Of a stretch of DNA of 64,000 nucleotides, positions 1 through 64,000 are shown in pieces. The DNA lies in contig MCFE01000274.1 of NCBI GenBank assembly GCA_002104905.1, forward strand, positions 41,866 to 105,865, in the 5' to 3' direction. The stretch comes from Basidiobolus meristosporus CBS 931.73. Taxonomy: Eukaryota > Fungi > Basidiobolomycota. Under the pieces are notes generated by a model, which was not told the origin of the DNA, did no database searches, and was given only the letters and a program-made list of their open reading frames with translations. Every line of letters starts with the position of its first letter. Positions within the stretch are counted from its first letter, which is position 1. The position numbers and the translations under genes are program-made.

Positions 1-462
1 TCTGGTGAATGACAGGATCTTGGATTTCCAATCAATACTCGGATTGTGGTAGCTCAACCATGAGCTTCCAAGCACAATAGGATAGTGTGGTGAGTTGATG
101 ATGTTGAAGGCAATTCTTTCTTGGTGGGCAGTACTGGACAGCTGGAGTAAGCATGTTTCATGGGTAACGGCACCAGAGGAGAGTGATCTTCCATCAATAA
201 CTTCTACTTGGACTGGACAGGATTTCAAGGTAACAGGAATAGAGTGCTTCTGGACAAAGGCTTGGTCAATGAAACAGGATGAAGCACCGGAATCAATCAG
301 GGCTAGGGCTGGGACAGGACTGGAGTCAGGGATCTGGATTTTGACAGGCATTCTCAAGGACTGGATAGATTTTGTGGCAAAGGAAGATTCTTGGATATGC
401 TGGATTTTCATGGGTGGGTCCAGTTGCAAGCCTGTCAGTGCAACTGGACATTGGAGTTTCCC
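1..462 (-). CDS. Ty3/gypsy pol 5' part (aspartic protease), -1 frame relative to gag; continues beyond the left edge
   Basis: Manual translation gives ...PALALIDSGASSCFIDQAFV...YPIVLGSSWLSYHNPSIDW..., retropepsin DSG and LG..WL..HNP.IDW motifs; frame open to the window edge. Confidence 0.9.
418..462 (-). promoter_or_regulatory. Programmed -1 ribosomal frameshift signal (slippery heptamer + stem-loop)
   Basis: G GGA AAC in the gag frame (456-462), 6-nt spacer, perfect 11-bp stem GTCCAGTTGCA/TGCAACTGGAC with 10-nt loop (418-449); the -1 frame is pol. Confidence 0.85.
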
Positions 463-1367: not shown

Positions 1368-1448
1368 GGTAGCAGAGGAAGGCGGATGAACTTGCAAGGA
1401 ATACTGGAATATACTAAACTAGGTTGTGGGTTTGTAAAGCCACTAGTA

Positions 1449-2296: not shown

Positions 2297-2297
2297 G

Positions 2298-2367
2298 AAT
2301 ACCTCTTCATCATGGGACTCAAATTCTGTGATGGCCCTTTGACAGGATCATCACAATTATTTTCATA
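2298..2367. repeat. Left arm of ~70-bp inverted repeat (partner 3941-4010)
   Basis: Reverse complement aligns at roughly 80% (by eye) to 3941-4010. Confidence 0.75.
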
Positions 2368-2449
2368 TGGTTAGCTATTTCTAATACAGCTTGAACTTCT
2401 GCCTTGTGGTACTGAAATGATTACCTATGAGATTCTTCTGTGCATTGGT

Positions 2450-3900: not shown

Positions 3901-3940
3901 ACTTGGCATATTCAGCATGCTGGTCTTACTGTGATCCCCT

Positions 3941-4010
3941 ATGAGAAATAATCATGATGATCTTGTCAAAAGGCGGTCACAAGATTCAAGTCCCATGACT
4001 AAGAGGTATT
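3941..4010. repeat. Right arm of ~70-bp inverted repeat (partner 2298-2367)
   Basis: See left arm; the motif gatc(c/t)tgtca recurs at 3959-3968 and 4011-4020. Confidence 0.75.
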
Positions 4011-4379
4011 GATCCTGTCAGGATGCTGTCCAAAGACCATTGAGAAACAATTGCACCCCTGATTTCACAAAAACCTAGTCAAAATTTTTCATCACGGCCA
4101 AACATATGTGACTTGTGATTAGTTCTCTGCCAACTGTCTCACTTTCTGATCCAGGACACTCAATCACCTCCTACATTAGTGTACATTGATTGGCTATTGC
4201 CTCTTTTTGATACTCCTTACTTTCTCACTTAACTAATTCTCTTACTTTTCATGCATACCAATAGATTTGTTTCCATTGAAACCTCAGTTGTTTCTCAATT
4301 GCCAATTGTATTGACCTATGCAAGTCCCAATACCCAACACTAATATTAACCTCAACCCCATATGCAACAAGTAACTGCA

Positions 4380-6130: not shown

Positions 6131-6299
6131 AAATATGTATTCTACCTGCATATCCTGCTGGTCTCTGATTCTCATCAACCTTAATCTACCACCTATCTTA
6201 CAGCATCAAAGCAGAAATCTGATAGTAGTCTTTCTGGTTTCTGGGCCTTAATCACTATCCAGCCTGGCCAGCTACCTTTATCCACTGCTGAATGAATAT

Positions 6300-7400
6300 T
6301 GTATGATTTCCAGCAGAACACTACTAAATGGCCATCATATCAGAGCTCATATTAATGTCTGCATTAGAGATACCCCAGCCATCAGCAAGATAGCTGGCTT
6401 TTCTGGGCACAATGGATGGTATTGCTGTCAAACATGTGAGATGCAGGGGATTTACTCCATAACTAACACTCATGATTATTATCCAAAACCAACACTAACA
6501 ACATCTTCTTCTCACTAAGATAATGTACCAAAGTCAGCATGTAATTGCAGCAAAGTTGGCAAGCTTTAAGTCATTGGCTGGAATATGGAATTAATTAGAA
6601 ACTGGAGATGCCAAAGATGGAAGGTATTTTTAGAGCAAAAGCTTTCCACTGGGAGCAATGCATTTGCTTATCAACAATATCCCTATTCTAATGACCTAGT
6701 TGTACATGGGGCATTTTAAGCTGAATGAGCCTTGTCAGATACCAGAGAAAATTGAAAAAATTGGCAAGATATTATGGAGTAACTGCTACCCAAAGTGCTT
6801 CTCATTGGCTCCAATCAAGATTCATATACATATGTAACAGTACAAATGCAAAGACTGGATGAACTGGATATATATTTATTCAAGTGGCCTTCTGAAGCCA
6901 TTTCAACCAAGTGTATATTGGATGCATTGGGAGTCATATGTGGACATTGTAGGAGTATTTATCCAAAAGCAGATCAGCAATGCCAACTTGTCACATCTAC
7001 AGCTTTTATGCAAGGAGTTTGTGACAGGATTTGAGCAGCTATATTACAAGCCTAAAGCTGAATGTGTAGATCTCTGCCACTACTGTATCCATTCTCTACT
7101 CCATCTTGCTTGGTGTGTGGACAATAGTGGGCCTTGTGTCCCCCTTTGGGAGTTTCCTATGGAGCAGATGCATGGGGAGATAGGAAGACAAGTCAAGTTG
7201 CAGGTACTACCATATCCCAATCTGATCAAGAACATTACCTTCAAGTCCATCATGGATGTGATGAGTTGGCACATAGAGGACAGCCAGAAGTGTTTGAAAA
7301 TGCTGAGGACAGATGTGCACATGGAGACACCTATACCTTTGGCATTGAGAAGCTAAGCAGCCCCAATGTGTGGGTAATCAGTTAAGTAATACAATGTTGG
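6300..7400 (+). pseudogene. Degenerate CACTA/EnSpm (CMC)-type transposase
   Basis: D-T-P-A-I-S-K-I-A-G-F-S-G-H-N-G-W-Y-C-C-Q-T-C motif and FEQLYY...C..H.LLHL.....GP...LWEFPME motif; stops and frameshifts between them. Confidence 0.75.
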
Positions 7401-7699
7401 GTTAGGCTCAGCAAGCAACTAATTCTTATTAGGACAACTTTACCAAAGTATGCTGGGTTTCTCTTGGTCACAAGCCAATTTCTACATCATTTAATACAGA
7501 ATTCACATAAACAAGTGCCAGAGCACACCTATAAGGGGGATAGAATCCAGCAGGGAGAAGGAATATACCAGCTAGAAACCAAGAAGTTCTTTGCAGATAT
7601 TCAGGAGGTATTTATGGCAAAAGTTGTGGCAACCAAGCATGAAGCTCATAGTTTAGGCTGACCAGGTAGGTAACTATTGCTTCATCACCAGTAGTTTTT

Positions 7700-7950
7700 A
7701 TGCCAACTGATTCCACTTCATTAACCATTATAGCACCTAAACATCACTTGAAGGTGTCTTCTAGTACCCTCCAGGCATTCTTTGCATTTTTGCACTTGTG
7801 CTTTGAATTTGCAATTTACCATTAGCATCAAGGCAAATGCAGTTGAAGGCACTTTGTGCACTCTTCTGGTACTTTAAGGCTACTTTTCTTACCCCTTCAG
7901 GAAGGTGTTCTTCTCCCATAGCCATATTCCAAAGACTTCATTCCTGTAAC
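7700..7950 (-). pseudogene. Possible copia gag fragment
   Basis: Reading ...GEEHLPE...AQSAFNCICL...AKMQKNAWRVLEDTF resembles the copia gag AW..L...F motif. Confidence 0.35.
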
Positions 7951-7953
7951 AGT

Positions 7954-8150
7954 TGTAAAAGTTTGTAATTCTTCCCAATATTCACCTAACCTAGCCACTT
8001 ACATCATTACCTACAAACCTTAGTGAATGCTGACCAAATTCCTTGTCAGGATTTATGTTGAATATTTTTCACCTGAAACAGCTGGTACACAGAGCATGAA
8101 AATTTTCAAAGTTGTCCATACTTTTTATGGCAGCTGAGCACAACATGTAA
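7954..8150 (+). mobile_element. Partial copia LTR (same family as 49.6-54.3 kb LTRs)
   Basis: Reverse complement aligns to 51790-51955; begins with TGT at 7954. Confidence 0.6.
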
Positions 8151-35599: not shown

Positions 35600-35909
35600 A
35601 TGATCTGGTTCTCAATGTAGATATACCATGTATCATATCTTGGTGCTGTATCTTTATGGCATCCCCCATTGTAATTTAACTCCTCTTTTCCCTAATTAAA
35701 CTAATTGTCTTCAGAAGCATACATAAATGGATGACCTCATATATCAACGTTGATGCAAGTATCTTAAATTGATTGTTTAAAAGAGCTCTGCAATTTTCGC
35801 CAACACTTACCCATGAATGTGTGAATATTTTGTCAAGATAGTTGCTATTAGCATAAAGTCAAAAGGCTTATCCTTGCTCATCCACACCCATTAGTCAAAC
35901 TCGTCATAC

Positions 35910-38900
35910 ATGGATCGCTCACAAAGATACCAAAAGCCTAGAGAAGGCTATGGCTCGCATCGAGGAACCGGCACATACCGCTTCGAGGAAAAACGAACTC
36001 CACCAGCCTCTGCAACAAAAGACAGATACGTTTTACCGTTCCAATCCATCGACGAGTTAAGAAACCAGCCGAAGCTTCGCATCAATCTCCGTAACGTTTC
36101 TTTTTCAGCCACCGCGACTGAGGTGAAACAACTTTTCTCGCAATTTGGTCAAGTAGCGGTCTGCTCCCTGGATAAGGACGAGTACACTGAGCGTCCGCTA
36201 GGGACTGGTCAAGTGACGTTCATTCCTCCACCCGGGAACTTGCTCTTTCTATCTAGACCGTTGATACTTCACCGGAGAGCGCTGCAGCTCGAATTTCCGG
36301 AGAAGTCGAACTCCAAAAAGCCACCAAGCAACGAGGCCTTTGAAGCAAAGCTTCTGCAATTCGGCTCACTAGTAAGGCCGAAGGAATACCTCGTAGGGTG
36401 GGAAGTGACGGAGGACATCAATTTAAGCATCGACTATAGGATAAGAACGATCAATCTACAGTTCGGCACCCATGGCCGGGTATACAAATTAACGTCAAAC
36501 TTCAAAGAGGTGGAGCACGAGATTGCGGTGCAAAGCGACGAGCGTCAGCTCACCTTGATCATGGCGTTCAAATATCCACCGCGATTCTGGATCAAAGACG
36601 AGAATCATGTTAGTAAGGATCGGTTTCATTGGAGCTCCAACGACTGCTGGAAACGCATCACACGACTCCAAATGGGGCCAGCCCCCGTGAGGAAAGGACC
36701 TCTTACAATCTACTATTCAGACGAAGAGGTGCAGTTGGGGAACTGGAGAATCTATCGGCTCCACTTCCATGCTGATGTCAATAGCTGGATGAGATACCGA
36801 TTGGCTCAGTTTATCAGCAAGGCCACCAGATACAACTTGATCCGAAGAAACAGCATCTACAGCACCATGGAGATCTCGCCCAAGGGCAAATACCCGCGTC
36901 CACGCATAGACATCACCTCGCTTCCATTCGAGCTTCAATACATGGTCGAATGCCTGCTCTCTCATGATATCCTCAACGAGTACTGTGTCACCCAGGGGCT
37001 GGTCGATCTATTACTGAGCCTAGCGCCTAATGTATCGCTGACCATACTGAAGCTGATGAATGGACTCAAAGAGCCCGTATACGATGCTGTGGAATTCATC
37101 CAAGCCCGAGCCCTTGAGTACGATCGGATCTATCGCGCACCGGAAGCGACGGCCGCCCATACGACCTTGATACGCAAGGTGAGCGTGAGTCCGTCGAAGG
37201 TTTACATTGAACCGCCGAGCATAGAGACATCCAACCGAGTCATCCGCCATTTTTCGAAAGAAAAGGACAATTTCCTTCGGGTCAACTTCACTGAGGAGGG
37301 CCTGCTCAAGATCGGAGTAAACACCGTCACGTTGGGCCAGGTGTACAATCGGCTTTACAATGTTTTGCTTCATGGGCTCACCATTGGCAACAAGCATTAC
37401 GAGTTTCTGGCCTTCTCGTCCAGCCAGCTGCGTGAGCACGGATGTTGGTTTTTCGCCTCGACCGAGAATGTAACCGCCCATTCGATTCGTCACTGGATGG
37501 GGGACTTCCGATCCATCAAGAACATTGCCAAATACGCGTCTCGAATGGGGCAATGTTTCTCCAGCACCCGAGCTATCGCTACGCAACCTGTGAAGGACAT
37601 CCAAATGATACCGGATATCATTCGGAATGGATACACCTTCTCCGATGGCGTTGGCAAGATTTCCCCGTCTCTGGCCAAGAACATCTCCAGAATACTCGAC
37701 TTGGAGCCAGTCCCCTCTGCCTTTCAATTTCGTCTTGGTGGCAGCAAGGGAGTGCTTGCATTGTCCCCCTACATGCGTGGGGATCAGGTGCATATAAGGC
37801 CCAGCCAGGTGAAATTCGAGTCGGACCACAACATCCTTGAAATCGTCAAAGTAGCCACTTACATCCCGTGCTACCTCAATCGGCAGATCATCACATTGCT
37901 ATCCACTCTAGGCGTCCCGGACACTGTATTCCTGGATCTGCAGCAACAAATGATTAAGCAGCTCAGCACCATGTCGACGAGTGACGCAATGGCCATCAAG
38001 GTATTGACGCAAAACGCAGATGAGTACGGGATCACCCGTAGAATGGTCGAACTTATCCGGGCAGGCCACCGTATGCGACAAGATCCTTATCTGGTGAATT
38101 TGCTCAAACTTTTCCAGATCTCACTGCTGAAGGACGTCAAACAGAGGGCGCGCATCCATGTTCCCAAGGGATGCCTTCTTATGGGTGTGCTGGATGATAC
38201 CTTGAGTCTTCGAGAAAACCAAATTTTCCTGCAGTACACAGACCCGGAAAACCCAACGGAGCGAAGGGTTGTGGAAGGCCCGTGTATCGTTACTCGGAAT
38301 CCGTGCTTCCACCCTGGGGATGTCCGTGTGGTCGAAGCAGTCAATGTCAAGGCTCTAGCTCACCTATACAACTGCGTGGCATTCTCTGCACTTGGCTTCC
38401 GGGACGTTCCCAACCAGTGCAGCGGCGGTGACCTTGATGGAGACTTTTACACGTACCGCAGCTCGCTCGTCTATTCTGTAAACTCGGCTAACCTCTGTTT
38501 CTTAGGGTAATCTGGGACCAGGAGCTTATACCGCCAACCAGAAACTATCCTCCAATGGAATATGACCCACCGGTTCCAGTGAAGGTGGATGAAGTGAACA
38601 TGGATCATGTCAAGAAATTCTTTGTCAACTACATAGCCAGCGATAACCTGGGTCTAATAGCAAACGCCCATCTGGTTCATTCAGACCGCCACCCCGATGG
38701 CGCGTTTAATGGGATTTGCTTACGACTAGCGCAGTTGAATTCGCTCGCTGTTGATTTCCCAAAAACCGGGGTGCCCGCAGAATTCGAGCCGGGCCTGAGG
38801 GCCAAGGAGTATCCGGACTTTATGGAGAAGCCGGAAGGGATCCTGACTTACAAATCGACCAAAGTTCAAGGGAAGATGTATCGCTCCATAGTCACTCACG

Positions 38901-39568
38901 AATTCGTCGTGTCAAAAGAGGCAAACTTCGACGAGCGTTTGCTGGTCCCGGGATTCGAGATATATCTGAAGGATGCTAGATACCACAAGGCGAGCTATGA
39001 TGTGGCATTGTTTGGCATCCTCAGACTCTTTGGGATTCCAACCGAATACGAGGTTATCAGCGGGTTTATGGATAAGTGGGTTATGCTTCTAGGACGTAAG
39101 AAACACAGCGTACGGGAACGGGTTTTGGATTCCTACATGGCGGTGCGCTCCACGTTCGTAAAGCAGTTTGAGGAGGAATTTTACGACAAGACGACCGGGC
39201 TGATCCCCAAGAGCGCCCACGAGGCTATTTACAAAAAAGCGTCCGCATGGTACTACACCACATACCATCCGAACGAAGGGAATCAAAATCCCACCATGCC
39301 TACCTTCTACTCCTTCCCCTGGGTGGTAGACAAATACTTGAACGATATCCTACGAAATCGCCACCGTTTAGCATTGGCTGAAGCTGGAGCGGCGCCTCTT
39401 GCTACCTCGATGCCTCGTCAAGCCGTCGTGGGGACAGACGAGGCGATATTGGGAACCAGTAGGACTGATGAGACAGCTGACGCCGGCAGTAGCTTCCCAC
39501 GGCCCAAAATCTTTGATATCAACGACGAAGACGATGATATGGCCGAGTTTGCCCAGGATTTCCTATGA
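35910..39568 (+). CDS. Cellular RNA-dependent RNA polymerase (RNAi RdRP) with N-terminal RRM-like domain
   Basis: FSDGVGKIS, AFQFRLGGSKG, RNPCFHPGD, CSGGDLDGDFY (catalytic DxDGD at ~38430), AVDFPKTG; one intron ~38453-38506. Confidence 0.95.
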
Positions 39569-49587: not shown

Positions 49588-49946
49588 TGTTGAGAATATC
49601 TTGCGATAAGAGTTTTGGAGATATTGGAAGTGATTGGGACAACAAGTAAATTATGTGGTTCTCACTTAATGACTTACTGAATGTAAAGATAGTATTTATA
49701 CTTTTACATGTTCTTGGCTGGACAAACATGTAGAATATGCTTAGGAAGGTTTGAAGAATATGCATGCAAAGTTTGGGGGGTTTTTGGACAACTTATCCAA
49801 ATTTCATGTTTGGGTACCTGATGTTATGGTGAAAATATTCTAAGTAAGTCCTGGCTAAGAGTTTACTCAGAGTTTTCTTGGAGCTGTAGGTAATAATCTA
49901 AATGACTAAGTTGAGTTAATATTTAGGTGTAACTACAAAATATACA
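49588..49946 (-). mobile_element. Copia LTR copy a, with adjacent polypurine tract
   Basis: TGTTG...TACA on the + strand; GGGTGGGAGCAT on the - strand abuts the TGT start; similar to copies b-e. Confidence 0.7.
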
Positions 49947-49988
49947 ATGCTCCCACCCATATAAACACTCATGTTAATTAGCCCTAAT

Positions 49989-50760
49989 TGTTGCAATATT
50001 CTGAGCAGTATTGGAAGTGATGTGGAGAACTAGAGGATTTACATGTTATTCACTTGTAGATTTATTGATCAAAAGTATGGTATTTATACTTTTGATAGAG
50101 TAGAGAAAAAAAATGTGCAGAGTTTGTTAAGAAAGATCCCAAGAATATGTGTGCAAAGTTTGGGGTCTTTTGGGCGACTTTGAGAAAAATAATAATCTGG
50201 GTACCTGACAATTTGGTGAAAATATTCCAAGTAAATCCCGACAAGTAATCTGGTCAGGACAGAATGCTAATCACAGTATAAGATCTATGTGACTAAGTTA
50301 GCATGAATATTTTGGTGACAACTCAATAATTACAACACTAATTGTGATCTAAGATATTCATATTTGTTACTAGCTAATGGATTGATAAATATGTCTGCAA
50401 TCATTTCATCTGTATGACAGTAGACTAAGCTAGCTAAACTATTCTCTATAGCCTCCCATACAAAATGATGTCAAAAACCTATGTGCTAAGTCCTAGCTTG
50501 AAAAGTGGGATTTCTACTTGATTATCTTGAAATCTTGTATTAGGGGCTTTTTGACATACATACTAGTGTCTAAAAAGCTTTCCTAGTCACATTGCTACTT
50601 TTGTAGCTTCACAGGCTGCCATATACTCTGCTTCAGTAGTGAAAAGTTCCACAGTTAGTGCTTTCTTGAGCTCCATGAAATTGCTCCTTTGCAGTCAGGA
50701 AAGGTGAATCCTCTAGTGGATCTTCTGTCATGGAAGCTAGGTTATCAAATCAGCATCAGA
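49989..50760 (-). mobile_element. Copia LTR copy b + truncated RNase H relic
   Basis: LTR from TGTTG 49989 to ~50334, then decayed MIADIF.KPL, ELSTTEAEY and GFSDAD motifs. Confidence 0.7.
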
Positions 50761-50841
50761 GAATCCCAAAAATTCCTGTTCTAATTCTTATAGATGTACT
50801 TTGAATAAATAGCAGCAGCTCTGCTCAAGTTTTCAAAAATC

Positions 50842-51440
50842 TGTTGTAAGAATCTTGGAGATATTGGAAGTGATTAAGAGAATCAGTAGATCATGAGGTT
50901 TTCACTTGCTGATATATTGAATGTAAAAGTAGTATTTATACTCTACATAGTACTGGCATAGAATATATGTAAAATATAGTAAGGAGGGTGCCAAAAATAT
51001 GTGTGCAAAGTTTGGGGCTGTTTGGAGAATTGGGAGAATACTGACCAAGATACTTGTTGGGATAAACCTAGTATATTTTCACTAAAACATCAGGTTCCCA
51101 GAATATTATAACTCTCAAAGACTTGTAGGTAAAGTACCAAGCAACCAAGCTAGAAGAATAGTCAAGTGGAATTATGTATTTTTAGAACACTCCTACTCAA
51201 CCAATTGTGCATACTGACTAGTCCTCATTGTGACCTAAGACATTTATATTTGTCTCCAGCTAATGGGTTGGTAATTATGTTGGCAATCATTTCATCTGTA
51301 AGACTGTAAGCTAAGCCAACCAGCTCTTCTCTATAGCTTCACATATGAAATGATATATAATATCTATGAGCTTAGTTAAAGCAATAAATTTTGGATCTCT
51401 ACCTATATGTATGCATCCTTCATTATCTTGAGATTGTAGA
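50842..51440 (-). mobile_element. Copia LTR copy c + short RNase H tail relic
   Basis: Same LTR motifs from TGTTG 50842; RNase H C-terminal relic at 51215-51440. Confidence 0.6.
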
Positions 51441-51499
51441 AAAACTTGTATTTACACCTAAATTTTCACTTAGCTTAGTTGCTTAGATTATTGCTTTAG

Positions 51500-51608
51500 A
51501 GTTAGGAGGGAGATAGTTGCCAATAGATTATGACTTTATTTCAGTTGAAACAAAAAAGTCAGCACTGCTGTTGCAGCTTAGATACAGAGTGTGTAGCAGA
51601 GGGGAATT
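51500..51608 (-). mobile_element. Decayed 3' end of the E2/E3-type non-LTR element, interrupted by a copia LTR
   Basis: Aligns to 59048-59160 (gttagg..ggagat/cagt...ctttatttcagttgaaacaaa...gagtgtgtagc.gaggggaatttg). Confidence 0.8.
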
Positions 51609-53868
51609 TGTTGTAAGAGTCTTGGAGATATTAGAAGTGATTGGGAGGGCAAGTAGATTAAGTGGTTTTCACTTAATTATTTATTGAATGTAAGAGTAGT
51701 ATTTATACTTTTACATGGTCTTGGCATTACAAACACGTAGAATAGGTTAAGGAAGGTCCCAAGAACATGTGTGCAAAGTTTGGGACTGTTTGGACAACTT
51801 ATCTAACTTTCATGTTCTGAGTACCTGGTATTTTGGTGAAAATATTCTAAGTAAATCCTGACAAGAAATTTGATCAGTATTCTCTAGGATTTGAAGGTGA
51901 TGATCTAAGTGACTAAGTTGGGTGAATATTTAGGTTGAATTACAGATTTCTACTACACTCCTGCTCAGCTAAATGTGCACATTGACTAGTCCTCATTTTG
52001 ACCTAAGATATTCATACTTGTCTCTAGTTAATGGTTTGGTAAATATATCTGCAATCATACCATCTGAAGGACAGTAAACTAAGCTAACTAAGTTACTCAC
52101 TATAGCTTCACATATGAAATGATGTCTCATATTTATGTGCTTAGTTCTAGCATGAAAGGTTGGATTTCTACATAATTGTTTACATCATTGATTATCTTGA
52201 AATAAAGTAATTAGTGTTTTTTGACATAGGCCTAAATCTGTAAAAAGCTTTCTTAACCACATTGCTTCTATTATAGCTTCACAGGTGGCTGTATACTCTG
52301 CCTCTGTGGTAGAAAGTGCTATGGTTGTTTGCTTTCTTGAATTCCATGAAATTGCTCCTTTACAGTGAAGAAAGGTGTATCCTGTGGTGGATCTTCTGTC
52401 TTCCAAGTTTTTCCCCAATCAGCATCAGAGTATCCCACAAGATCCTGTTCTGAACTCTTATAAGTGTATCTTGAGCAGATATCAGAAGTTCCTTTTAGGT
52501 ATCTAAAAATCAGCTTAACTGCTGCATACAATCAGATCCATAGTTCTGATTATGCTGGCTGACAACTCCCACTGAATATGAGATATCTGGATTGTTCAAA
52601 GCATGATATAAATCAGAATACCTACCATAGATTGATAAGGAAAGTCAGGGCTTTCAGATGGCACCTAGCTCTCTTGATTTGGCTGAGTTTTGACCAAGTT
52701 AGGGTTTGTCTCCATTAGGGTAGCTGCCAGTTTACAGTCTTCCATTTGGTACTTCTTTGGTATATCTTGAATATACTTGGATTGTCTTAGGTAATTGTCT
52801 GGGTACTTCTATCTATGGAGAACTTAATCCCTAAGTAGTAACTGAGTTCTCCTCAATTGGACATCTTGAACTCCTTAGATAGGCTGGATTTAGTCTCTTC
52901 CAATGTTGCTAGGTTATTGGTGGCTATAATAAGATCATCCAAATATTGAGCTAATAGAACTGGATTTGCTCTATCTGGCTTATAATATATACTATAGTCC
53001 GCATTACTCCTTTGGAAACTCAAAGATTCCAAAAAAGTATCTATCTTTCAATTCCAGGCACTTGGTGATTATTTGAGACCATAAAGAGACTTTTTAAGCT
53101 TGCAGACCAAGTGGGGGTTATCATGGTCAACAAACCATCAGGCTGGTCCATATACATTTCCTCATCAGGTTCTTCATTTGAAATGCTGTTCTGTCATCCT
53201 TTTGATGAATAAAGAACTCATATCTAGCTGCAATAGCCAATATTAATCTGATGGAATTAAACCTGGCCACCAATGCAAATGTCTCAGTATAGTCAAGTCC
53301 TTTTGTTTGAGAGTATCCTTTGGCCACAACTCTTGCTTTCTATCTCTCAATTGTACCATCAGTCTTGTATTTTGACTTAACGACCCATCTGCATCCAATT
53401 GATTATTAATTGATTGGTAATTTGACCAAGTCCCAAGTTTGATTTTCAATCAGGGCCTGATATTCCTGAGTCATTTCAGATCTCCAAAACATTGTCTGAA
53501 GGCTATTTAGGGCCACTTTTACAGTCTGGGGCTCATCAATATGGACTGAATAGGCATAGGCTAAGTTTGTACCCTCATTGATATTGTATTTGGGCTATTT
53601 CTTGTCCAATTGGATCTCCAGGCATCTAATACTGGAATGATCACTTCTGGGTTATTCCTGGGCACTGCATTAGGCTAAACCATGGTTATAGAGTCCTCTG
53701 GGGTGAAAGGATTTTGATTATTTTGCTCAGATTCAATCCTGACAATTGGTGGACTTTTGATCAGATTTCTTTCATCATCTGAAGTCATTTTTTGTGAAAA
53801 TTTTGAATTTTCATCAAACAAGACATCCCTGTACTTGATAAGACTCTTGGCTTTGGTATTGTAGAGTC
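51609..53868 (-). mobile_element. Copia relic: LTR d + RNase H + RT + integrase C-terminus; 5' part missing
   Basis: AKGYSQTKGLDYTETFA, IFRYLKGT, VGYSDADWG, ALSTTEAEY and RLYNTKAKSLIKYRDVLFDEN; many stops. Confidence 0.9.
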
Positions 53869-53917
53869 TTAGGAGAGGAAAGTCACCAAGTGGTGAAATC
53901 TTGATTTACCTATGACT
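53869..53917 (-). mobile_element. Minimal 3'-terminal fragment of the non-LTR family
   Basis: TTAGGAGAGGAAAGTCACCAAGTGGTGAAATCTT, same terminal hairpin as E1. Confidence 0.75.
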
Positions 53918-54266
53918 GTTGTAATTATTGAATTGTCACCTAAATACTCATGCTAACTTAGTCACATAGATTTTATTCTGTGATTAGCATTTTGTCCTGA
54001 CTAGATTTCTTGTTGGGATTTACTTGGAATATTTTCACTAAATTGTCAGGTACCCAGATTATTTTTTTCTCAAAGTTGTCCAAAAGACCCCGAACTTTGC
54101 ACACTTATTCTTGGGACCTTCCTTAACAGACTCTACACGTTTGTTTCCTCTACTTTATCAAAATTATAAATACCATACTTTTGATCAATAAATCTACAAG
54201 TGAATAACATGTAAATCCTCTAGTACTCCACATCACTTCCAATACTCCTCAGAATTTTGCAACAAT
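53918..54266 (+). mobile_element. Copia LTR copy e (opposite orientation)
   Basis: Near reverse complement of 49989-50334. Confidence 0.75.
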
Positions 54267-54578
54267 GACAAGTATCTAAAGAAGTCAAGTTAATCTGAAG
54301 CTATTACTAGAAAGCTAGGTCTAAGAGATATCTTCCTGGTAAGCCAGGTCTGAGAGTTGAGAGGCTGAGTGGTACTATATTTGCTAGTTAGCTAGGTCTG
54401 AGAGAGGTTTCCTGGAAAGCCAGGCCTGAGAAGGGGGAATCTGAATATATCTGAGGTCAGTTGTACTGGTTTGCGGTAGCTGAATTGTGGCTGTAATGGC
54501 CAGAGGACTGAGGGGACTGAGGGGAATTTCTTGGCAATCACTGGCCAGATTAACTAGGCAAATCTGACCAATTAGCAC

Positions 54579-54792
54579 TTAGGGGGGATGATCATCACCA
54601 AAGGGTGAAATCTTTATTTAAATAATAAATAAAGAAGCCAAGTTTGAATATGAATATCTGAGATGCAGGAAGCCTACAAGATAAACTTGGACTTTGCTGT
54701 ATCCCAAATATCCTCAATATCAAAGTCTAGAGGAGAGTGTAGCAAGACTGCTTGTTCACTGTAGTATTTCTTGAGGAAGTTTGTGACTTGAA
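54579..54792 (-). mobile_element. E0: ~215-bp 5'-truncated non-LTR element (third subfamily)
   Basis: Same terminal motif (TTAGGGGGG..TCACCAAAGGGTGAAATCTTTATTT..AAAGAAGCCA) and an ORF tail ending ...WDTAKSKFIL*. Confidence 0.7.
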
Positions 54793-54883
54793 GGGTTAGG
54801 GGAGGGAAAGTCACCAAGTTGGTGAAATCTTTATTTGAGTTAAGAACTAATCTAAGTACAAATAAAGAAGCCAATTAAGAGGT

Positions 54884-57733
54884 CTAGAACCTCTCTAATA
54901 AGTAATCCAATTTATGTTTTGTTTCATCTCTAATGTTTGTTTCAATAAAGTGAAGCTCATCAGAGGTAAATATAAAATTCAGGGGTTTTGGGGGAAGTAC
55001 AAATTGTAGATGTTTCTGATCAATATAATCCAAGACTGGAACCCAGCCTGGAATTAGGTGTAGTAGGAAAGGTGTGTGGACTTGTAAGTAGCTCTGCCAC
55101 ATTGATCTTAGATGGTCCTGAGCCAGTAGTCTTGGTTTCTCAGCTTTTTGAAGTTTTGAAGCAAGCTCTGTTACTACAGCAGAGCCAACCAGGGTGTGCC
55201 AGCAAGAAGATCTCAGGGAGGAGTTAGATTGAAGCCATTGTTTGATGGAGGGGTTATGTGATTTCTGAAGTTTGACTAGGAAGGAAGCACAGAGATAGAT
55301 CATTTGGATTTGGTATGGGTAGAACCCAAAAACTCCATTAGTTGCATGGATATAGGGAGATACTGGAAGATAAGGTACCAAGGATCTGATACACTGATGG
55401 AGAAATTTATCCAGGCGGTGAAGTTCTCTGGAGGTTAGGGGTATAATGTGGAGACCAAATTCAAGTACCGGCAGTACATACTGCTTCAGAAGTATAGGGA
55501 TCTTTTGAATTGGAGTGTCTGGAGTGACTACTACCAGAAGCTTTTTGAGAGCCTGTTGGGCAAGACGGATCCTATTATTCAGGTGGAGCTTTGAGTCAAT
55601 CCCATGTTGACAAAACGGCAGACCTAGATATATTGCAGTTTGTTGTGGCAGAATGCTAGTGTTCTGTATAGTTGTAGTGCACCCAATTGGGACTGTCTTG
55701 GAAATTGAGAGTGAGAGGTTGTTGGCAGCCAAGTACTTCTCAATGATGGCAGTGTCTGCTATGGGCTTAGGAGTAGCAATCTTGATATCATCCGCATAGA
55801 GAGTTAGTAGTGGATAGGGAGAGTCTGGTGAGGGGCCTTTTGGAAATAAAGGAAAGTCGTGTAGGAATATCACAAATAGTAAGGGACCTAGTACAGATCC
55901 TTGGACTACTCCATTTGGAACCTCATAAGTCTCTGATGTACAACTTGGATGCAAAATTTTGGCTGAGTTCTCACAAAATAGAGAACGTACAAGAAGGGTC
56001 ATTGGTAGTGTGGTAACTGCTAATAGCTTTCTCCAAAGCAGAGCTCTGTCCACAGAGTCAAAGGCTTTAGTAATGTCAAACAGAATGGTTGGCAATGAGA
56101 ATTGAAGTGAATGATCATGGCTTAGCACTACAGCCATATCCAAGGAGAGTTTAGGCAAGAATCCAAACTGGGAAGGATGGAATGGATATAGTTGAGATTG
56201 CAAGGATCTTGCTATTATAAGCTCAAATATTTTCCGGCAGGTTGGTAGGAGCAAAACTGGCTGGTAAGAACCTGGGAGTGAGTGTTTCCCCTTCCCTTTG
56301 TATAAGGGTATAACATTTGCCTGTGACCAGGCCTTTGGGGTAGTCAATTGTTGGGCACAGATAGAGTAGAATGGGAGAAGTAAGTGACTCATTTTGGAGT
56401 AGCACACCCGGAGTAGATCGTAGGTAATCAAGTCATGTCCAGGTGCAGTATTTGCAGGAAGCTTCTTTAAAATTTTCTCCAGAAGCTTTGCTGAAACCAA
56501 AATTGGAGATGTTGGACTGCTAGATATGTTACCAGTATGGTAGAAAGGAGGAGTGGGATGCACAGTTGAATCAAAGAATATAGGGGCCAGTTTGTCTGGT
56601 GATGGTATACTCCTTGCTTGGGGTCTCATGGCTTTGTATACTCTTGATATAGACCTTGTGGTGGCATTCATATTTACTAAGGGCAAGGTATCCATGATAT
56701 GAGCCCATAATCTAGTATGCTCAGTGATCTGTAGTGACTTGGAGTAGGAGATTGCGCTTTCCAGGAGGTTCTGTGTTTTTGGGTTAGGGAAACATAGGTA
56801 GCTGGAATTTAAGGCAGAAATGATGGATTTCCATTTAAGTTGGTTTGCAGATGGCTTTTGGTAGGACTTGGTGGGCAGGGCCAGACAGCCAGTGATTATG
56901 ATGAAATGCTGGTAAAATAGCCATAATGCATTTACATCATCACAAATCCATGCAGGTAAGCTGGGAAATGCATATTCTGTAAGCAAGGATAGGTAGTTGG
57001 CAAAGTCCTGTGTCTGTGATACTGAAGCTTTGGCTGGCAGGATTGTAAATGGCTGAAGAAGGGTGCCAATTGGTAGGGTTTTTCTGGCAGAAATGATAAT
57101 ATGTATTGGCTTGTGATCAGATTTCTCTAGTGAACCACAGCTGATATCCTCTGGAATGCTTGTAACCTGGTGGATGTACTGTAAGGCAGCAGGAGTAGCT
57201 GTTACCCAGTCAACACAACGTTGAGCTTGCTGAGTGTTTACAGTGACCAGATGGTTTTGTTGGAGGAACTTTGTAAAGTGCTCCTCTTGGGTTCCAAGTC
57301 TGGATGAAATAGTGGTGATATTTTCAGGGTGGGGAATATTTATATCTCCCACTACCATACAAGGGATTGATGAGCTGTTAATGAATTCTGATGTGGCCAA
57401 GAAAATTGCCAGTGTTATGGAGTTAGACAGAGATGGAGGGAGATAGATAATAATGGCTACTATAGTTGGAAGTGTTAGAGCATAGCAGTAATATCCATAG
57501 ATGATGGATACATTTGCTGAGGGTGCAAGCTTAGAAGATGAAAGAGCAACAAGTGCCATTGAGTGAGCTGGGAATTTTGGGTGAGCAGATGAATATGCAT
57601 TCAGTCTAGAGGGAAGTTTTGGCAACTTAACATCAATTAGTAGGATCAAGGAATATTCCTTTTTCAGTAAGTTTTCTAATTCAGCTACAGTTGGAGTGAT
57701 GGAGTTGAAGTTGAGTAAGAGTATGTTCTGTAG
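54884..57733 (-). CDS. E1 ORF2: APE-type endonuclease + reverse transcriptase, intact, no initiating ATG
   Basis: LLNFNS, IYLPP, GDINIPH, CVDWV and SDH (endonuclease); APG.D.ITY, QFGF, FDITKAFDSVDR, GVVQGSVLGPLLF, YADDI and YLG (RT). Frame opens directly after the ORF1 stop. Confidence 0.92.
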   Translation of the reverse strand, partial: LQNILLLNFNSITPTVAELENLLKKEYSLILLIDVKLPKLPSRLNAYSSAHPKFPAHSMALVALSSSKLAPSANVSIIYGYYCYALTLPTIVAIIIYLPPSLSNSITLAIFLATSEFINSSSIPCMVVGDINIPHPENITTISSRLGTQEEHFTKFLQQNHLVTVNTQQAQRCVDWVTATPAALQYIHQVTSIPEDISCGSLEKSDHKPIHIIISARKTLPIGTLLQPFTILPAKASVSQTQDFANYLSLLTEYAFPSLPAWICDDVNALWLFYQHFIIITGCLALPTKSYQKPSANQLKWKSIISALNSSYLCFPNPKTQNLLESAISYSKSLQITEHTRLWAHIMDTLPLVNMNATTRSISRVYKAMRPQARSIPSPDKLAPIFFDSTVHPTPPFYHTGNISSSPTSPILVSAKLLEKILKKLPANTAPGHDLITYDLLRVCYSKMSHLLLPFYSICAQQLTTPKAWSQANVIPLYKGKGKHSLPGSYQPVLLLPTCRKIFELIIARSLQSQLYPFHPSQFGFLPKLSLDMAVVLSHDHSLQFSLPTILFDITKAFDSVDRALLWRKLLAVTTLPMTLLVRSLFCENSAKILHPSCTSETYEVPNGVVQGSVLGPLLFVIFLHDFPLFPKGPSPDSPYPLLTLYADDIKIATPKPIADTAIIEKYLAANNLSLSISKTVPIGCTTTIQNTSILPQQTAIYLGLPFCQHGIDSKLHLNNRIRLAQQALKKLLVVVTPDTPIQKIPILLKQYVLPVLEFGLHIIPLTSRELHRLDKFLHQCIRSLVPYLPVSPYIHATNGVFGFYPYQIQMIYLCASFLVKLQKSHNPSIKQWLQSNSSLRSSCWHTLVGSAVVTELASKLQKAEKPRLLAQDHLRSMWQSYLQVHTPFLLHLIPGWVPVLDYIDQKHLQFVLPPKPLNFIFTSDELHFIETNIRDETKHKLDYLLERF

Positions 57734-59047
57734 TCAGGCAGACTCTGAGGTTGCCTGTTCCTGCTGAAACTCTTGCACTGCCCTTTGTAAATTTCCAGAA
57801 TTATTCCACAACTCTTCAAATGGAGCTTGCGTAATGTCTTTCAGGATTCTAATTGCTTCCTCTTTCAAGAAGTAGGCCACATCATAGGTTGGAGCCTGTT
57901 TCTTAATGGCAGCAAAGAGAGCCATAATTGCCATGTGAGCTGGGGGCTTGTTGAATATTCCTGGCTCAGTGTCCATTGACTCTGGTGGAATGATTGTGAA
58001 TTTGGTAGGCACCCAGTTTAGATTTTTTGCCAGATACTTAGTCAATGCAGTGGAGAAGTTTCTGTCTACAATCATTTCTAGGATCTTTCCTCTTCTCCAA
58101 GCTAGGTTAACAATTTTGAAGTGTCAATATTTAGAGAGCGGAATGTATGTCTGATGTTTGATATAGTAGTCCATGGAACATTGGCAAAGTATAGCAAGGA
58201 CCAATTCTGGAGCTGAGGTAAGTTTGCTGGAGGCTTATAGGTAGACTTCCTGGCCGGTTGTGTGGTAGGCTTTAGTGTTTCCAAGGTAGCAAGTTGTGGT
58301 TGAGACTTTTTGGAATTACGTATGACTTTGGAAAGAATTCTGCCAGCAACTGTGTCAGGAATGTTAGTACTCATTGATGGTGCAGGGCCTGGCTCCTGGT
58401 ACTGCTTTTGTAGAATACTTGAGTATGTCTCTTTTTGTTTTCCTTTATCCAATGTGCTATGCCTTGGAATGGGATTTTGGGGAATAGAGACTTCAGGTAT
58501 CAACTCTGGGGTCTGGGGATTGTCCAACATTGTTGCTTGAGCTTCCAGCTTTTCCTCTAAGATTTGAACTCTCTGCTTAAGCTCATCATTTGATGCTATA
58601 AGTGTTGCATTGTTTGGAGCCAGGTCAGGTGTTGAGTTATGAAGGCAGGTTGAGCAGCGTTCTAACTCCTTTGTTTGGTCATCCAACTTTTCATCTAAGG
58701 TTTGAACCCTAAATTTGAGTGCACCATTTGAGGTTAGAAGCTCCAAGTTATCAGCCTGCAACTTCTTTAGATCCCTAAATATCTCAAATATCTGTGCCTG
58801 CAAGTCTTTAGCAGTGATATTTCTGATGGGTACTATTTCCTCTAGGAGTTCTTCTTGAGCCAGGTGAGCATTGGGACTTGAGCACTCTACTGAAGGAGTT
58901 GCTGGAATTTCCTCAATGTCTGACAAAACTCCTTCACTTGCAGCATCAGTTGTATGATTATCCTGAGTAGCAGCAACAACCTCAAGTTCACAAGGACCAG
59001 TTAAAGTAAAACATCTCTTGGGTGGGACTATCTCAAGAGGCTTAGGT
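57734..59047 (-). pseudogene. E1 ORF1 (coiled coil + RRM-like), 5'-truncated, 1-nt frameshift at ~58115
   Basis: Track ORFs 58102..59073 and 57734..58075 join into a homolog of E2 ORF1 (YKPPANLP, VPWT.ISNIR, IVNLAWR.GKILE, NKPPAH, KQAP.YDVAYFLK). Confidence 0.85.
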
Positions 59048-62000
59048 GGGTTAGGGGGGGAGACAGTCACCAACAGGTGAAATCTTTATTTCAGTTGAAA
59101 CAAAGAAGCCAGTGCTACTGTTGTAGCTTTGATACAAGAGTGTGTAGCTGAGGGGAATTTGTAGGTAAGTTAATAAGAAGTGATGATAGTTCTTCAGTGC
59201 TCAAGACACTGTTCAGTGGGAAGGGGGGTAGCAAGAGAGGTAAGAATGACTTGTGAACAACATTAATGAGGGGAATGTGATAAGGATTGATATTCATCAT
59301 AAAGGGAGTGTGCTGCTGCAGATATTGCTGCCAAAGGTCTGTCAAGTACTTCAGGTAGGCCAGCTTGGGTTTTTCTGACTGCAGAATAAATTCAGCAAAC
59401 TTCTTGACTTCAGGATCTCCAAGTATAGTTCTCCAGCAGGAGCCAGGTGTTGTGTGGTGTGTTCTCTTCCAGGCCTTAATCAGTGGGTTGTTGCAGTTGT
59501 GAAGTCTGAGGTATAATCTGGTTCTAAGGTAGAGAAGTCTGATCTTATAGGGCATAAACCCAAAAGCACCAAGAATAGCATGTCTGTAGGGGCATTCAGG
59601 CAAATGAGGCACCAAGGAGGTAATGCACCATACTGCAAACTTGTCAAGCTTAGTGCAGTCTCTAGAAGTAAGAGAGAGAAGTGGTAAGCCAAATTCCAGG
59701 ACAGGGAAGACAAACTGCTTGAGTAGAAGGAGGCAGCTGGGAGCTGAAGTTGTAGGAGGAGTAACAGCCAGTAGCTTGTGGAGTGCCTGTCTTGCCAGGA
59801 TAATTCTCTTCTTCAGGTGTGCTCCAGAGTCTAGTCCAGTAGGAAGGAAAGGAAAGCCAAGATATGTAGCAGAAACCTGAGCAGGTAGAGTGGAGTTCTC
59901 CAAGTTGATGGGAGAGCCCAAAGGTACTGTCTTTGCAATGGAAAGCTGGAGATTATTCTTCTGCAGATACTGGTGGATGGTCTGGGAGTCTTGTTGCACA
60001 TTGGAGGAGGATATTCTGATGTCATCAGCAAAGAGAGTAACCAGGCAGTCAGCTGAGAGTCTTGGGAAATCATTCAGGAAGATGGCAAACAGTATAGGAC
60101 CAAGCACAGAGCCTTGAACCACTCCATTAGGAACTGAGAACACAGCTGATTGCTCACTTGGGTGCAGAATTCTTGCTTGTGGATCCAGAAACAGAGACCT
60201 GACAAGGAGGGTGAGAGAGGTACTGGAGAAGCATTGCAACTTGGACCAAAGCAGATTTCTGTCAACTGAATCAAAGGCCTTAGTAATATCAAACAGAACT
60301 GAGGGATACTTGCACTGGAGAGAGTGATCTTGGCTAAGTATGACTGCATATTCCAAGGAGAGGCCAGGAACAAAGCCAAACTGTGCAGGATGAAACTTGA
60401 GGGAGTCAGAGTAGAGCTCCTGAGCAAGCAGAAGCTCAAACACCTTTCTGCAGGTGGGCAGCAGAGATATTGGCCTGTAGGAGCTAGGATCCAGGTGCTT
60501 TCCTTTACCCTTGTACAGTGGCAGAACATTTGCAAAGGACCATTCCTCAGGAGTAGAAAGCTGGGCTGAGCATTGCTGAAACAGTGGAAGCAGAAGTGCA
60601 GACATGGCCTTGGTACTAGTCTTCAGAAGCTCATAGGAGATTGTGTCCACACCTGGAGCAGTAGAGTTGGGAAGCCTCTTGAGCACATTATGGATTCTCC
60701 TTTGATCAAGTGCAAGTGGGATGGGCAGAGTCTTGAAGTCAGGATGAAAGTCAGGAGTTGAGTACTGCTTTGTAGAGAAGAAGATGTTAGCCAACTGTTC
60801 TGTTGAAGGTAACTTCCTGGAAGAGGGCCTCATTGCCCTGTAGCAGTCTTGATACTGTTCTTGTTATAGAGTTGGAAGATTGCAGAGGCAAGGAACTCAT
60901 AATATGATCCCAGAGCTGAGTATGCAGAGTGTGGTGAATTGCCTTGGAGTGGTGTATGCTGTCAGGAGGAGTTTCTCTGTTTTTGGGTTAGGGAAACTCA
61001 GGTAGCTTTGTTGCAGGGCTGAAACAATGGATTCCCATTTTCTTGAGGTAACAGCAGTAGTCTTGCATGGCAGTGAGAGGGAGGCAGACACCAGAATCAG
61101 ATGCTTCACAAAGAGCCAGGCATAGTTGAGATCAATCTGGCAGAGAAAGTAGCAAACTGGCAAGCTTCAAGTAGTTCCCAAAGTCTTTCTTCTGATTCTT
61201 GGTAGCTTTGTGGGTGAGCACAGTAAGTTTTGGCAGCTTCTTCTTCACAACTGGTTGCATAGAAAGGGACCAGGCTGGGTGGTCAGAGGCTCTCAAGGAT
61301 CCTAGCTCAGCTCCAGAGAATTGCTTAACTTCATTCACAAAGTAGAGGGCAGCAGCAGAAGGGCAGATCCAGTCAACACATCTTTTCTCAGATTGAGCAC
61401 CTAGTGCTAGCAGATGGCTTTCTCTCAGGAAGTTCAGTAGGAATGTAGACCTTGGCTTCATTCTTGCAGTCAGAGTAGTCTTGTTCTCAGGATGGGGAAT
61501 GTTGAGATCTCCAAGCAAGATAACAGGTGTCTGATATAGATTGCTGGTATTGCTGAACTTTCTGGCATATAACTTGCACTTCCTGAAGGAGAGACTTGGA
61601 GGCAGATAGCAGAGCACCAGACTGATAGTTGGCAACTGGAGAGCAGCACAGTAAGGGGAGTAAAGAGGAACACAGAGCTGAGGAGTATTGATGGTAGAAG
61701 AGATGAAGCAGATAGAGGAGGTATTCTTTGTTCTAGGAGTAGAAAAGCAATATAGATTAGTCAAAAGTATAGAGGGTAGCTGGACATCAATCAAACACAG
61801 GAGGGAAAATCTTGAAAGAAGTCTCTCTAGAGTTGGTCTTGATGGCTGTATGCTGTTGCAGTTAAGCAACAGAACTTCAGGTAGTCAGGCAGAGGTTGTA
61901 GCTTCTTCAGAGGCAGCATTGACAATGTGACCTGCAGAGTCCCAGAGCTCTTCAAATGGTGCATCACTTAAGTCAGCAAGGAGGGAAATGGCATGGTTCT

Positions 62001-62699
62001 TGAGGAAGTATGCCACATCATAGGAGGGGGCTTGTCTCTTGATGGCAGCAAAGAAAGACAGAATGGCAACATGGGCTGGAGGCTTGTTGAACAGTAGAGA
62101 GTCAGAGGATTCAGATTCTTCAGGCACTATCTTGAAGTCAGTTTTCAGCCAGTTAAGGTTCTTCTCCACAAAGGCAACAAATGGGTCAGCAATGTTTTGG
62201 TCTAGGATAACCTCCAGAATCTTCCCTTTTCTCCAGGCCAGGTTGACAATTCTTGAGAGCTGAATATTGCATGCCTTGAGTGCTTTCCTGATGTTGGAAA
62301 TGGGAGTCCAGGGAACTTGCTTCAAGTACACCACAGTCCAGGTAGAAGCTGGTGGTAGGTTTGCTGGGGGCTTGTAAGTCCTTCTGTGTGGCAATGGAGC
62401 TGCAGTAGTCAGATTGGAGTCCACATTCTCAGTAGAGGGTTTTCTTGATGTGTCTTGCTGAATGGTACTGGAGCTGGATGTGCTGATAATTCTTGCTAGA
62501 ACCTTGCCTGCATAAGTCTGAGGTATAGCTGAGGTGACTGTAGAGGTGGTGGCAGCTGGTGCAGGTGGAGAGGCAGAAACTGAAGCAGGAACTGAGGTCA
62601 CCTGGGAGAAGACAGTAGAAGCAGGTTTTCTGGGAGGAACAGAGTTCACTATCCAGTTGTTCTGTAAAACACTGGAGTAGCTTTCTGTGGAACAGAATC
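59048..62699 (-). mobile_element. E2: non-LTR retrotransposon, second subfamily, 5'-truncated within ORF1
   Basis: ORF1 61885-62699; ORF2 59115-61884 with about three frameshifts (~61140, ~60930, ~60845); the RT part 59115-60833 is intact. Confidence 0.9.
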
Positions 62700-64000
62700 T
62701 TAGGGTTAGGGGGGGGAGACAGTCACCAACAGGTGAAATCTTTATTTCAGTTGAAACAAAGAAGCCAGCACTACTGTTGTAGCATTGATACAAGAGTGTG
62801 TAGCTGAGGGGAATTTGTAGGTAAGTTAATAAGAAGTGATGATAGTTCTTCAGTGCTCAAGACACTGTTCAGTGGGAAGGGGGGTAGCAAGAGAGGTAAG
62901 AATGACTTGTGAACAACATTAATGAGGGGAATGTGATAAGGATTGATATTCATCATAAAGGGAGTGTGCTGCTGCAGATATTGCTGCCAAAGGTCTGTCA
63001 AGTACTTCAGGTAGGCCAGCTTGGGTTTTTCTGACTGCAGAATAAATTCAGCAAACTTCTTGACTTCAGGATCTCCAAGTATAGTTCTCCAGCAGGAGCC
63101 AGGTGTTATGTGGTGTGTTCTCTTCCAGGCCTTAATCAGTGGGTTGTTGCAGTTGTGAAGTCTGAGGTATAATCTGGTTCTAAGGTACAGAAGTCTGATC
63201 TTATAGGGCATAAACCCAAAAGCACCAAGAATAGCATGTCTGTAGGGGCATTCAGGCAAATGAGGCACCAAGGAGGTAATGCACCATACTGCAAACTTGT
63301 CAAGCTTAGTGCAGTCTCTAGAAGTAAGAGAGAGAAGTGGTAAGCCAAATTCCAGGACAGGGAAGACAAACTGCTTGAGTAGAAGAAGGCAGCTGGGAGC
63401 TGAAGTTGTAGGAGGAGTAACAGCCAGTAGCTTGTGGAGTGCCTGTCTTGCCAGGATAATTCTCTTCTTCAGGTGTGCTCCAGAGTCTAGTCCAGTAGGA
63501 AGGAAAGGAAAGCCAAGATATGTAGCAGAAACCTGAGCAGGTAGAGTGGAGTTCTCCAAGTTGATGGGAGAGCCCAAAGGTACTGTCTTTGCAATGGAAA
63601 GCTGGAGATTATTCTTCTGCAGATACTGGTGGATGGTCTGGGAGTCTTGTTGCACATTGGAGGAGGATATTCTGATGTCATCAGCAAATAGAGTAACCAG
63701 GCAGTCAGCTGAGAGTCTTGGGAAATCATTCAGGAAGATGGCAAACAGTATAGGACCAAGCACAGAGCCTTGAACCACTCCATTAGGAACTGAGAACACA
63801 GCTGATTGCTCACTTGGGTGCAGAATTCTTGCTTGTGGATCCAGAAACAGAGACCTGACAAGGAGGGTGAGAGAGGTACTGGAGAAGCATTGCAACTTGG
63901 ACCAAAGCAGATTTCTGTCAACTGAATCAAAGGCCTTAGTAATATCAAACAGAACAGAGGGATTCTTGCTCTGGAGAGAGTGATCTTGGCTAAGTATGAC
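62700..64000 (-). mobile_element. E3: non-LTR retrotransposon nearly identical to E2; runs off the right edge
   Basis: 62703-64000 matches 59048-~60343 with only about ten differences counted by eye; RT ORF 62771-63895+. Confidence 0.92.

Follow-up and report, generated by a model that had tools for sequence, protein, structure and literature searches.

Two LINE families of Basidiobolus meristosporus join ORF1 and ORF2 through an in-frame UGA-CUA-C, a candidate site of programmed stop-codon readthrough

It is a long-standing question how long interspersed nuclear elements (LINEs) make small amounts of protein from their second open reading frame (ORF2) when the RNA carries two genes, and the tested cases that we found in print, L1 and SART1, use reinitiation. 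Both have bicistronic RNAs with low ORF2 output (PMC5972666, PMC4091050, PMC5009743); L1 places a spacer of 63 nucleotides (nt) and an AUG between its genes, and SART1 overlaps stop and start (PMC5972666). Here we analyse a stretch of 64,000 nt from the fungus Basidiobolus meristosporus CBS 931.73 (contig MCFE01000274.1, positions 41,866 to 105,865; "the window"), which carries copies of two LINE families, E1 and E2, with neither spacer nor AUG at this place: ORF2, which encodes an endonuclease and a reverse transcriptase (EN-RT), begins in the ORF1 frame directly behind the ORF1 TGA. We propose, with a probability of roughly 0.68, that EN-RT is made by programmed readthrough of UGA-CUA-C as a rare ORF1-EN-RT fusion.

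Readthrough of an in-frame LINE stop has already been proposed in print, in a different sequence context, for the non-LTR (long terminal repeat) Group 3 of Paramecium tetraurelia, where it was suggested from consensus sequences (PMC5405496). Like E1 and E2, these are LINEs of the apurinic/apyrimidinic endonuclease (APE) type with ORF1 and ORF2 in one frame and a single stop, but they form a ciliate clade; in one element, RT21873, the stop reads TGA-GTG, as counted by us in the published sequence, with the EEP domain starting about 110 nt behind it, whereas in E1 and E2 it reads TGA-CTA-C and the fold follows at once (PMC5405496). In the fission-yeast Ty3/Gypsy elements Tj1, Tosmo1-3 and Tcry1, gag and pol are separated by a conserved GAA-TGA-CT, and the Tj1 stop is essential for transposition (bioRxiv 10.1101/2022.12.06.519325). 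These elements share with the Basidiobolus elements a fungal host, in-frame structural and enzyme genes, a conserved upstream codon, proposed readthrough and a TGA followed by CTA (or CTG), but they are LTR elements with a protease, and their upstream codon is GAA where E1 and E2 have GCC. The novelty that the layout had seemed to imply thus holds in part, the Paramecium and fission-yeast junctions being already in print. The hexanucleotide of E1 and E2, UGACUA, is that of type II readthrough in Ustilago, animals and Sindbis virus (PMC4207609, PMC13517186), and in Ustilago maydis and HeLa cells a UGA needs no more than a following CU(A) to be read through (PMC4207609). The Ustilago and animal products are short peroxisomal tails and the viral ones replicases, often with a downstream stem-loop. 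Tca2 of Candida albicans likewise has one UGA between in-frame genes (gag-UGA-pol) in a fungus, but is an LTR element (PMC2194720). Gammaretroviral gag-pol, the analogy drawn by an earlier, sequence-only reading of this DNA, proved to be of the wrong type: the type III signal is UAG-G plus a pseudoknot (PMC13517186), whereas the Basidiobolus junctions have UGA-C, and a Pfam scan found no protease family in the element.

The 13-mer TCTGCCTGACTAC (TCT GCC TGA CTA C) occurs at exactly two sites in the window, both on the minus strand, and these are the E1 and E2 junctions (Table 1). The sequence-only reading had reported this identity, the start of ORF2 in the ORF1 frame right after TGA in both elements, and the lack of an ATG ahead of the first endonuclease motifs; the window search and the translated frames bear out all three and add the strand. 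The first residues behind the stop are LQNILLLNFNS in E1 and LPEVLLLNCNS in E2. The stretch from -31 to +99 around either stop is free of ATG in all frames, and hence none overlaps the stop in the manner of SART1. The first in-frame methionine is codon 59 in E1, behind the first two endonuclease motifs and before GDIN at 129; in E2 it is codon 142, past GDLN at 125, again as first read. Near-cognate codons close to the stop differ between the two elements (ATA at 4 in E1; CTG at 5 and TTG at 6 in E2).

How much weight can the shared 13-mer bear? The coding sequence behind the stop is conserved (43.5% identity over 92 aligned codons, E1 versus E2). Fourfold-degenerate sites between E1 and E2 are close to saturation, with 61 of 193 identical against an expected fraction of 0.28. 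CTA makes up 48 of 287 leucine codons. Given that the residues S, A and L are kept, the product probability of finding the same three codons and the same next base is about 0.005, uncorrected for a site picked post hoc. An identity of 13 nt is not unique in length, as the 2295 aligned nt contain two further such runs, each within conserved ORF1 motifs; the junction 13-mer is unusual by its location in a variable linker. We take it as moderate support for a constraint at the nucleotide level, which would lie partly upstream of the stop.

E1 and E2 are distantly related families of APE-type (non-LTR) LINEs: ORF2 has an N-terminal endonuclease with a non-LTR-type reverse transcriptase (RT) behind it, and copies are 5'-truncated with a fixed 3' end. 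In Pfam, RVT_1 scored above the cut-off in E1, E2 and E3 (the latter a second copy of the E2 family), and Exo_endo_phos_2 fell below it in E2 (E 9.9e-5); the closest solved protein to the E1 RT by sequence is L1 ORF2p (E 1.8e-21). A structure model of the 240 residues behind the E1 stop is an AP endonuclease (pLDDT 77.6; first strand E2-8). Residues 1..216 align with R1Bm EN 10..222 (Z 17.3, root-mean-square deviation (rmsd) 3.8, 193 aligned) and with APE1 61..318 (Z 16.5, rmsd 3.8, 202 aligned); the endonuclease also matches TRAS1 EN (Z 17.1) and, by Foldseek, APE1 (E 1.9e-10). Because its first strand comes directly after the stop, the modelled fold is predicted to begin at the first post-stop codon, leaving no room for a later start codon. 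The second endonuclease motif, which in E1 lies at 57641-57646 on the minus strand (ORF2 residues 29-33), is LIDV in every family with coverage there; APE enzymes usually have the catalytic Glu at this motif.

ORF1 matched no Pfam family, and its fold search was dominated by coiled coils, the best hit (Z 7.0, rmsd 3.7, 77 aligned) lying within the chance range. The model of one ORF1 relative, P0043, has a long helix (83-146), a folded C-terminal domain and a low-confidence stretch of the last 11 residues. Full-length ORF1 relatives (P0045, P0058-P0060, P0063, P0069, P0070, P0074) have a CPxC...CxC, zinc-ribbon-like start before the coiled coil, and the C-terminal domain is similar to unnamed Atlas clusters that are commonest in Mucoromycota (scores 0.95, 0.93).

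The ORF1 end recurs among relatives. By protein comparison, six of eight close ORF1 families terminate in [S/T]A-stop, and in six of the eight the stop lies exactly 18 residues past the last conserved tryptophan. Within this tail, positions -10 to -3 are variable, position -2 is S or T in 6/6 and position -1 is A in 5/6. The C-terminal domains are 47-83% identical pairwise in the seven aligned families, and the P0062 fragment is 58-67% identical to the window copies. The count of eight leaves aside P0045, which ends before the domain, P0042 and P0057 (E2 family), P0075 and P0076 (P0058 cluster) and the distant ORF1s P0063/77, P0064, P0065, P0069, P0070/78 and P0074 (15-34% identity), these distant ones all having other C-terminal ends. 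P0061, P0066 and P0067 were rejected as ORF1 relatives, being unrelated sequences that seem to have matched via the N-terminal portion of P0057; P0068, P0071, P0072 and P0073 match the profile region of these three and likewise stand outside the count. The ORF1 tree resolves little, with stars on 2 of 10 inner branches, and no sequence of events was read from it.

On the ORF2 side, the close relatives form one 90% cluster in which the starts assigned by gene callers are scattered (918, 821, 785 and 781 amino acids (aa)), as we would expect if there is no fixed ATG. No fused ORF1-ORF2 protein appeared among 20 profile matches (longest 848 aa) or the four close ORF2 matches, and a weak search for longer, fused forms found none. 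Beyond these four, the identity of relatives is 20-33% and confined to a portion of the protein. ORF1-based scans of metagenome, prokaryote-genome and viral contigs gave no relative; an ORF2-based scan gave 28 distant metagenome loci (24-48% identity in the best segment) and none in prokaryote genomes, and the junction pattern had no match in viral contigs. Among the 13 of these 28 loci that were inspected, the distant LINE L013:15-5087 has two long ORFs in one frame with a single TGA, a GTG context and a methionine 8 codons downstream, so that readthrough does not follow from a shared frame by itself. Two partial proteins of the LINE group, P0046 and P0052, are filed under Bacteroides fragilis, probably through fungal contamination of the record.

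Is the stop a property of the families or of these copies? The question arises since the repeats are nearly CpG-free, so that decay of CGA to TGA has to be excluded. The observed-to-expected CpG ratio is 0.00-0.15 in the repeats (1-8000, 50000-64000) versus 0.76-0.96 in the genes (10000-48000), with a sharp switch, and from 50 kb onward it is 0.00-0.13. The LINE frames are open despite this loss and their arginine codons are mostly AGA/AGG (59/65; CGA 0/65), which suggests that the active elements evolved almost without CpG. Short-read contigs were available from four runs of one sample, which may itself be the source of the window and would then not be independent of it. The E1 junction is spanned by contigs X3 rec 17 and X4 rec 24, with the 13-mer unchanged and 12 and 13 differences elsewhere; the E2 junction is covered by X3 rec 23 (61836-61988) with no difference and by X4 rec 28 with one (61996 is listed for X4). 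Coverage in runs X5 and X7 consists of short ORF1 patches, with the junction outside. Both families are multi-copy and have many insertion sites: joints and loose ends abound at the 3' end, toward which depth grows. The depth of one E1-family contig is 6,137, where long low-copy contigs have about 150; although read depth does not equal copy number, this points to tens of copies. Each E2 frame break in the window is matched by a one-base difference in the contigs of all four runs, at about full depth for 60844 and 61531 and at part depth for the rest. Since the contigs contradict the window's frame breaks, the families appear largely intact and the breaks to be assembly errors or copy-specific. 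The contigs keep the 13-mer and six of eight close families share the ORF1 end, so the stop belongs to transposing lineages and is not a product of CpG decay. The conservation first ascribed to the stop and its context thus stands for the spanning contigs of both families, and extends, at the level of the protein end, to those of the six other families that end in [S/T]A.

Taken together, the same frame, the single stop and an identical 13-mer in a variable linker, silent sites in the rest of the alignment being close to saturation, favour readthrough, as do an ORF2 that opens without an ATG, an endonuclease fold from the first post-stop residue and near-cognate codons that E1 and E2 do not have in common. 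Type II readthrough calls for a UGA with CUA or CGG behind it; the CUA form is present in 2/2 families for which there is DNA, with conserved in-frame coding directly downstream. By contrast, the ORF2 terminator is TAG in E1, E2 and E3, which is not a leaky context. We propose the following model. Most ribosomes would terminate at the UGA and release ORF1p, and a few percent would insert a near-cognate amino acid and continue to a protein of about 1,400-1,460 residues. The near-cognate amino acids at UGA are Trp, Cys or Arg. With no protease family detected in the element, the fusion would be left uncut; its ORF1 coiled coil would permit co-assembly with free ORF1p on its own RNA, and readthrough would fix a high ORF1:RT ratio, like gag-stop-pol in LTR elements. 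Upstream bases to -3 modulate readthrough efficiency (PMC13517186), an effect that may, by analogy, explain the kept GCC. The rare fusion proposed in the sequence-only reading hence stands as the best-supported candidate mechanism, with reinitiation as an unlikely rival. The stronger proposal, in which a little-known LINE group of early-diverging fungi would make EN-RT only as an uncut readthrough fusion tuned by the conserved TCT-GCC and be the fungal instance of a general, so far overlooked third route to LINE ORF2 next to reinitiation and frameshifting, is tentative, and we would put it somewhat short of even odds.

Several observations weigh against readthrough. Two of the eight close ORF1s end otherwise (P0060 in ...ESI, P0062 in ...PTN), and the bases 3' of the stop come from two families only, the other six contributing a protein end without stop codon, context or frame. 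The ORF2 relative P0004, on a contig equal in length to that of the ORF1 P0043, has its assigned start past the EN domain. Between two related families, CTA-C alone would be shared by chance with a probability of about 0.05 (again post hoc and uncorrected), and much of the conserved 13-mer lies upstream, where TCT GCC is not required by the UGA-CUA rule, so that a signal other than UGA-CUA is possible at the junction. A narrower look for variants found none at the E2 stop, a weak result because it missed the 61996 variant. The Tca2 junction alone did not give readthrough in a Saccharomyces cerevisiae reporter (PMC2194720), a caution that one UGA between gag and pol does not have to mean simple readthrough. 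A stimulatory structure had been sought in the ~100 nt downstream, and folding gave none common to E1 and E2: from +4 to +103, z was -0.4 (E1) and -1.9 (E2), and downstream windows ranged between -1.9 and +0.8 in a model without pseudoknots. Such a stem-loop is present in several viruses and is not needed in Ustilago (PMC4207609, PMC13517186). A search for a long-range complement of the 13-mer found only one 7-nt match in E1 and none in E2.

To these may be added the finding that human L1 ORF2 is translated without need for its AUG (PMC4091050), which also speaks for the main rival, an unlikely but serious one: AUG-independent termination-reinitiation, as in L1, with a restart within a few codons that would yield a free EN-RT protein. 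L1 ORF2 translation needs a completed upstream ORF (PMC5009743), and in SART1 stop and start are coupled (PMC5972666). Near-cognate codons are at hand at position 4 in E1 and 5-6 in E2, and conservation of the upstream half of the 13-mer suits a reinitiation signal. However, these codons are unlike between E1 and E2 and fall within the first strand of the fold, and neither junction has the spacer and AUG of L1 or the stop-start overlap of SART1. Reinitiation requires neither a common frame nor UGA-CUA and leaves both unexplained.

A bypass at the RNA level, by splicing or through an internal promoter that would give an ORF2-only RNA, is improbable. For splicing, CTGAC within the 13-mer would serve as the branch point; it fits the fungal branch consensus, and an AG lies downstream of it in both copies. 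Against this, the acceptors are unequal in phase (CAG, phase 0, in E1; AAG, phase 1, in E2), no donor of GTAAG/GTGAG type lies within 330 nt upstream of either stop, and the distance from branch to acceptor is 6 and 10 nt. In host genes, pattern matching turned up 59 unverified candidates whose corresponding distances are 3-97 nt, those most like introns having 13-22. Among the joints listed for the short-read contigs, none removes the stop with GT-AG ends. A minor internal promoter exists in the junction of Tca2 (PMC2194720). An ORF2-only RNA from such a promoter would still be without an ATG.

Less probable still is a recoding of the UGA, either into a Trp codon through A-to-I editing or as selenocysteine. 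Stop-codon editing occurs in some fungi. Selenocysteine machinery is described in five early-diverging fungi, but Basidiobolus is not one of the five named and the word is absent from the main text of that preprint (bioRxiv 10.1101/314781). In addition, the UGA site is predicted to be a flexible linker and not a redox site, and no stable hairpin spans either stop (z +0.3 and +1.5). Artefact or decay of a single-ORF element, by CpG deamination of CGA or by assembly error, is largely excluded: the repeat region is nearly CpG-free and short reads contradict several window indels, but the majority contigs of both families retain TGA, CGA is absent from the 65 arginine codons, E1 ORF2 runs 949 codons without another stop, the ORF1 end recurs across families 47-83% identical, and no fused protein was among the relatives found.

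Table 1. Positions, strand and character of the E1, E2 and E3 features in the window.
Feature	Position	Strand	Remarks
E1 ORF1 and its TGA	57734..59040	-	5'-truncated; coiled coil, conserved C-terminal domain, short variable tail
E1 ORF1 frame break in window	58113	-	contigs of all four runs have one extra base, full depth
E1 junction 13-mer	57730..57742	-	ORF1 stop TGA at 57734-57736
E1 ORF2	54884..57733	-	949 open codons, TAG end, without ATG at head; RVT_1 E 6.9e-18
E1 AP-endonuclease domain	57086..57733	-	residues 1-216 from first post-stop codon; predicted from structure model
E1 reverse transcriptase core	55685..56287	-	ORF2 residues 483-683, YADD
E1 3' end	54793..54840	-	AATAAAGATTTCACC-hairpin-TTGGTGA, C run, TAACCC
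E2 ORF1	61885..62694	-	5'-truncated; 98% to Basidiobolus meristosporus protein P0042
E2 junction 13-mer	61881..61893	-	ORF1 stop TGA at 61885-61887
E2 ORF2 (EN-RT)	59115..61884	-	window frame breaks near 60844, 60956, 61134, 61531, 61587
E2 3' end motif and TAACCC-like tail	59041..59095	-	adjoins truncated E1
E3, 3' part of second E2-family copy	62700..64000	-	99.2% identical to E2; adjoins truncated E2; leaves window

The three LINE copies lie head to tail within 54793-64000 in the order E3, E2, E1, each 3' end adjoining a 5'-truncated neighbour (E3 on E2, E2 on E1); the array could reflect nested insertion or end-to-end addition. Five 3' ends on the minus strand (62743, 59087, 54832, 54615, 53902) have AAGATTTCACC in common, followed by a short hairpin closed by TTGGTGA, a C run and TAACCC or CCTAAG. 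This tail is similar to the TTAGGG telomere repeat; many 3' junctions in the short-read contigs carry GGGTTA-like letters, with diverse flanks and no telomeric arrays. Adjoining E1, the end of another ORF1 (54580-54790, minus strand; 62% over 47 aa to the B. ranarum protein P0064) stops at TAG, with a LINE-type 3'-end motif about 60 nt further on, and is likely a solo-ORF1, non-autonomous element that uses the LINE's 3' end. The stretch 49600-54300 carries LTR-like repeats and several decayed fragments of Copia type, in both orientations. Domains encoded in the gene region are fungal (Mcp5_PH, Gti1/Pac2 and Ras_bdg_2 in Pfam), and an RNA-dependent RNA polymerase gene at 35895-39568 (plus strand) is split over two overlapping frames by an intron or an assembly indel.

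The junction observation is real, conserved and not an artefact. The literature covered, with subscription papers and Repbase entries outside its scope, holds no experimental readthrough in a LINE and no account of these Basidiobolus elements; surprise is limited in that the signal and its use by fungal LTR elements are already known. With no spacer, no AUG and a six-letter signal that is leaky in a fungus, the junction offers an unusually clean test case for LINE ORF2 expression. If readthrough is what happens here, pipelines that call such stops inactivating, or that start ORF2 at a later ATG, would be wrong for these families. LINEs would then be able to use the gag-stop-pol logic of LTR elements, and a functional LINE RT could bear ORF1 at its N-terminus.

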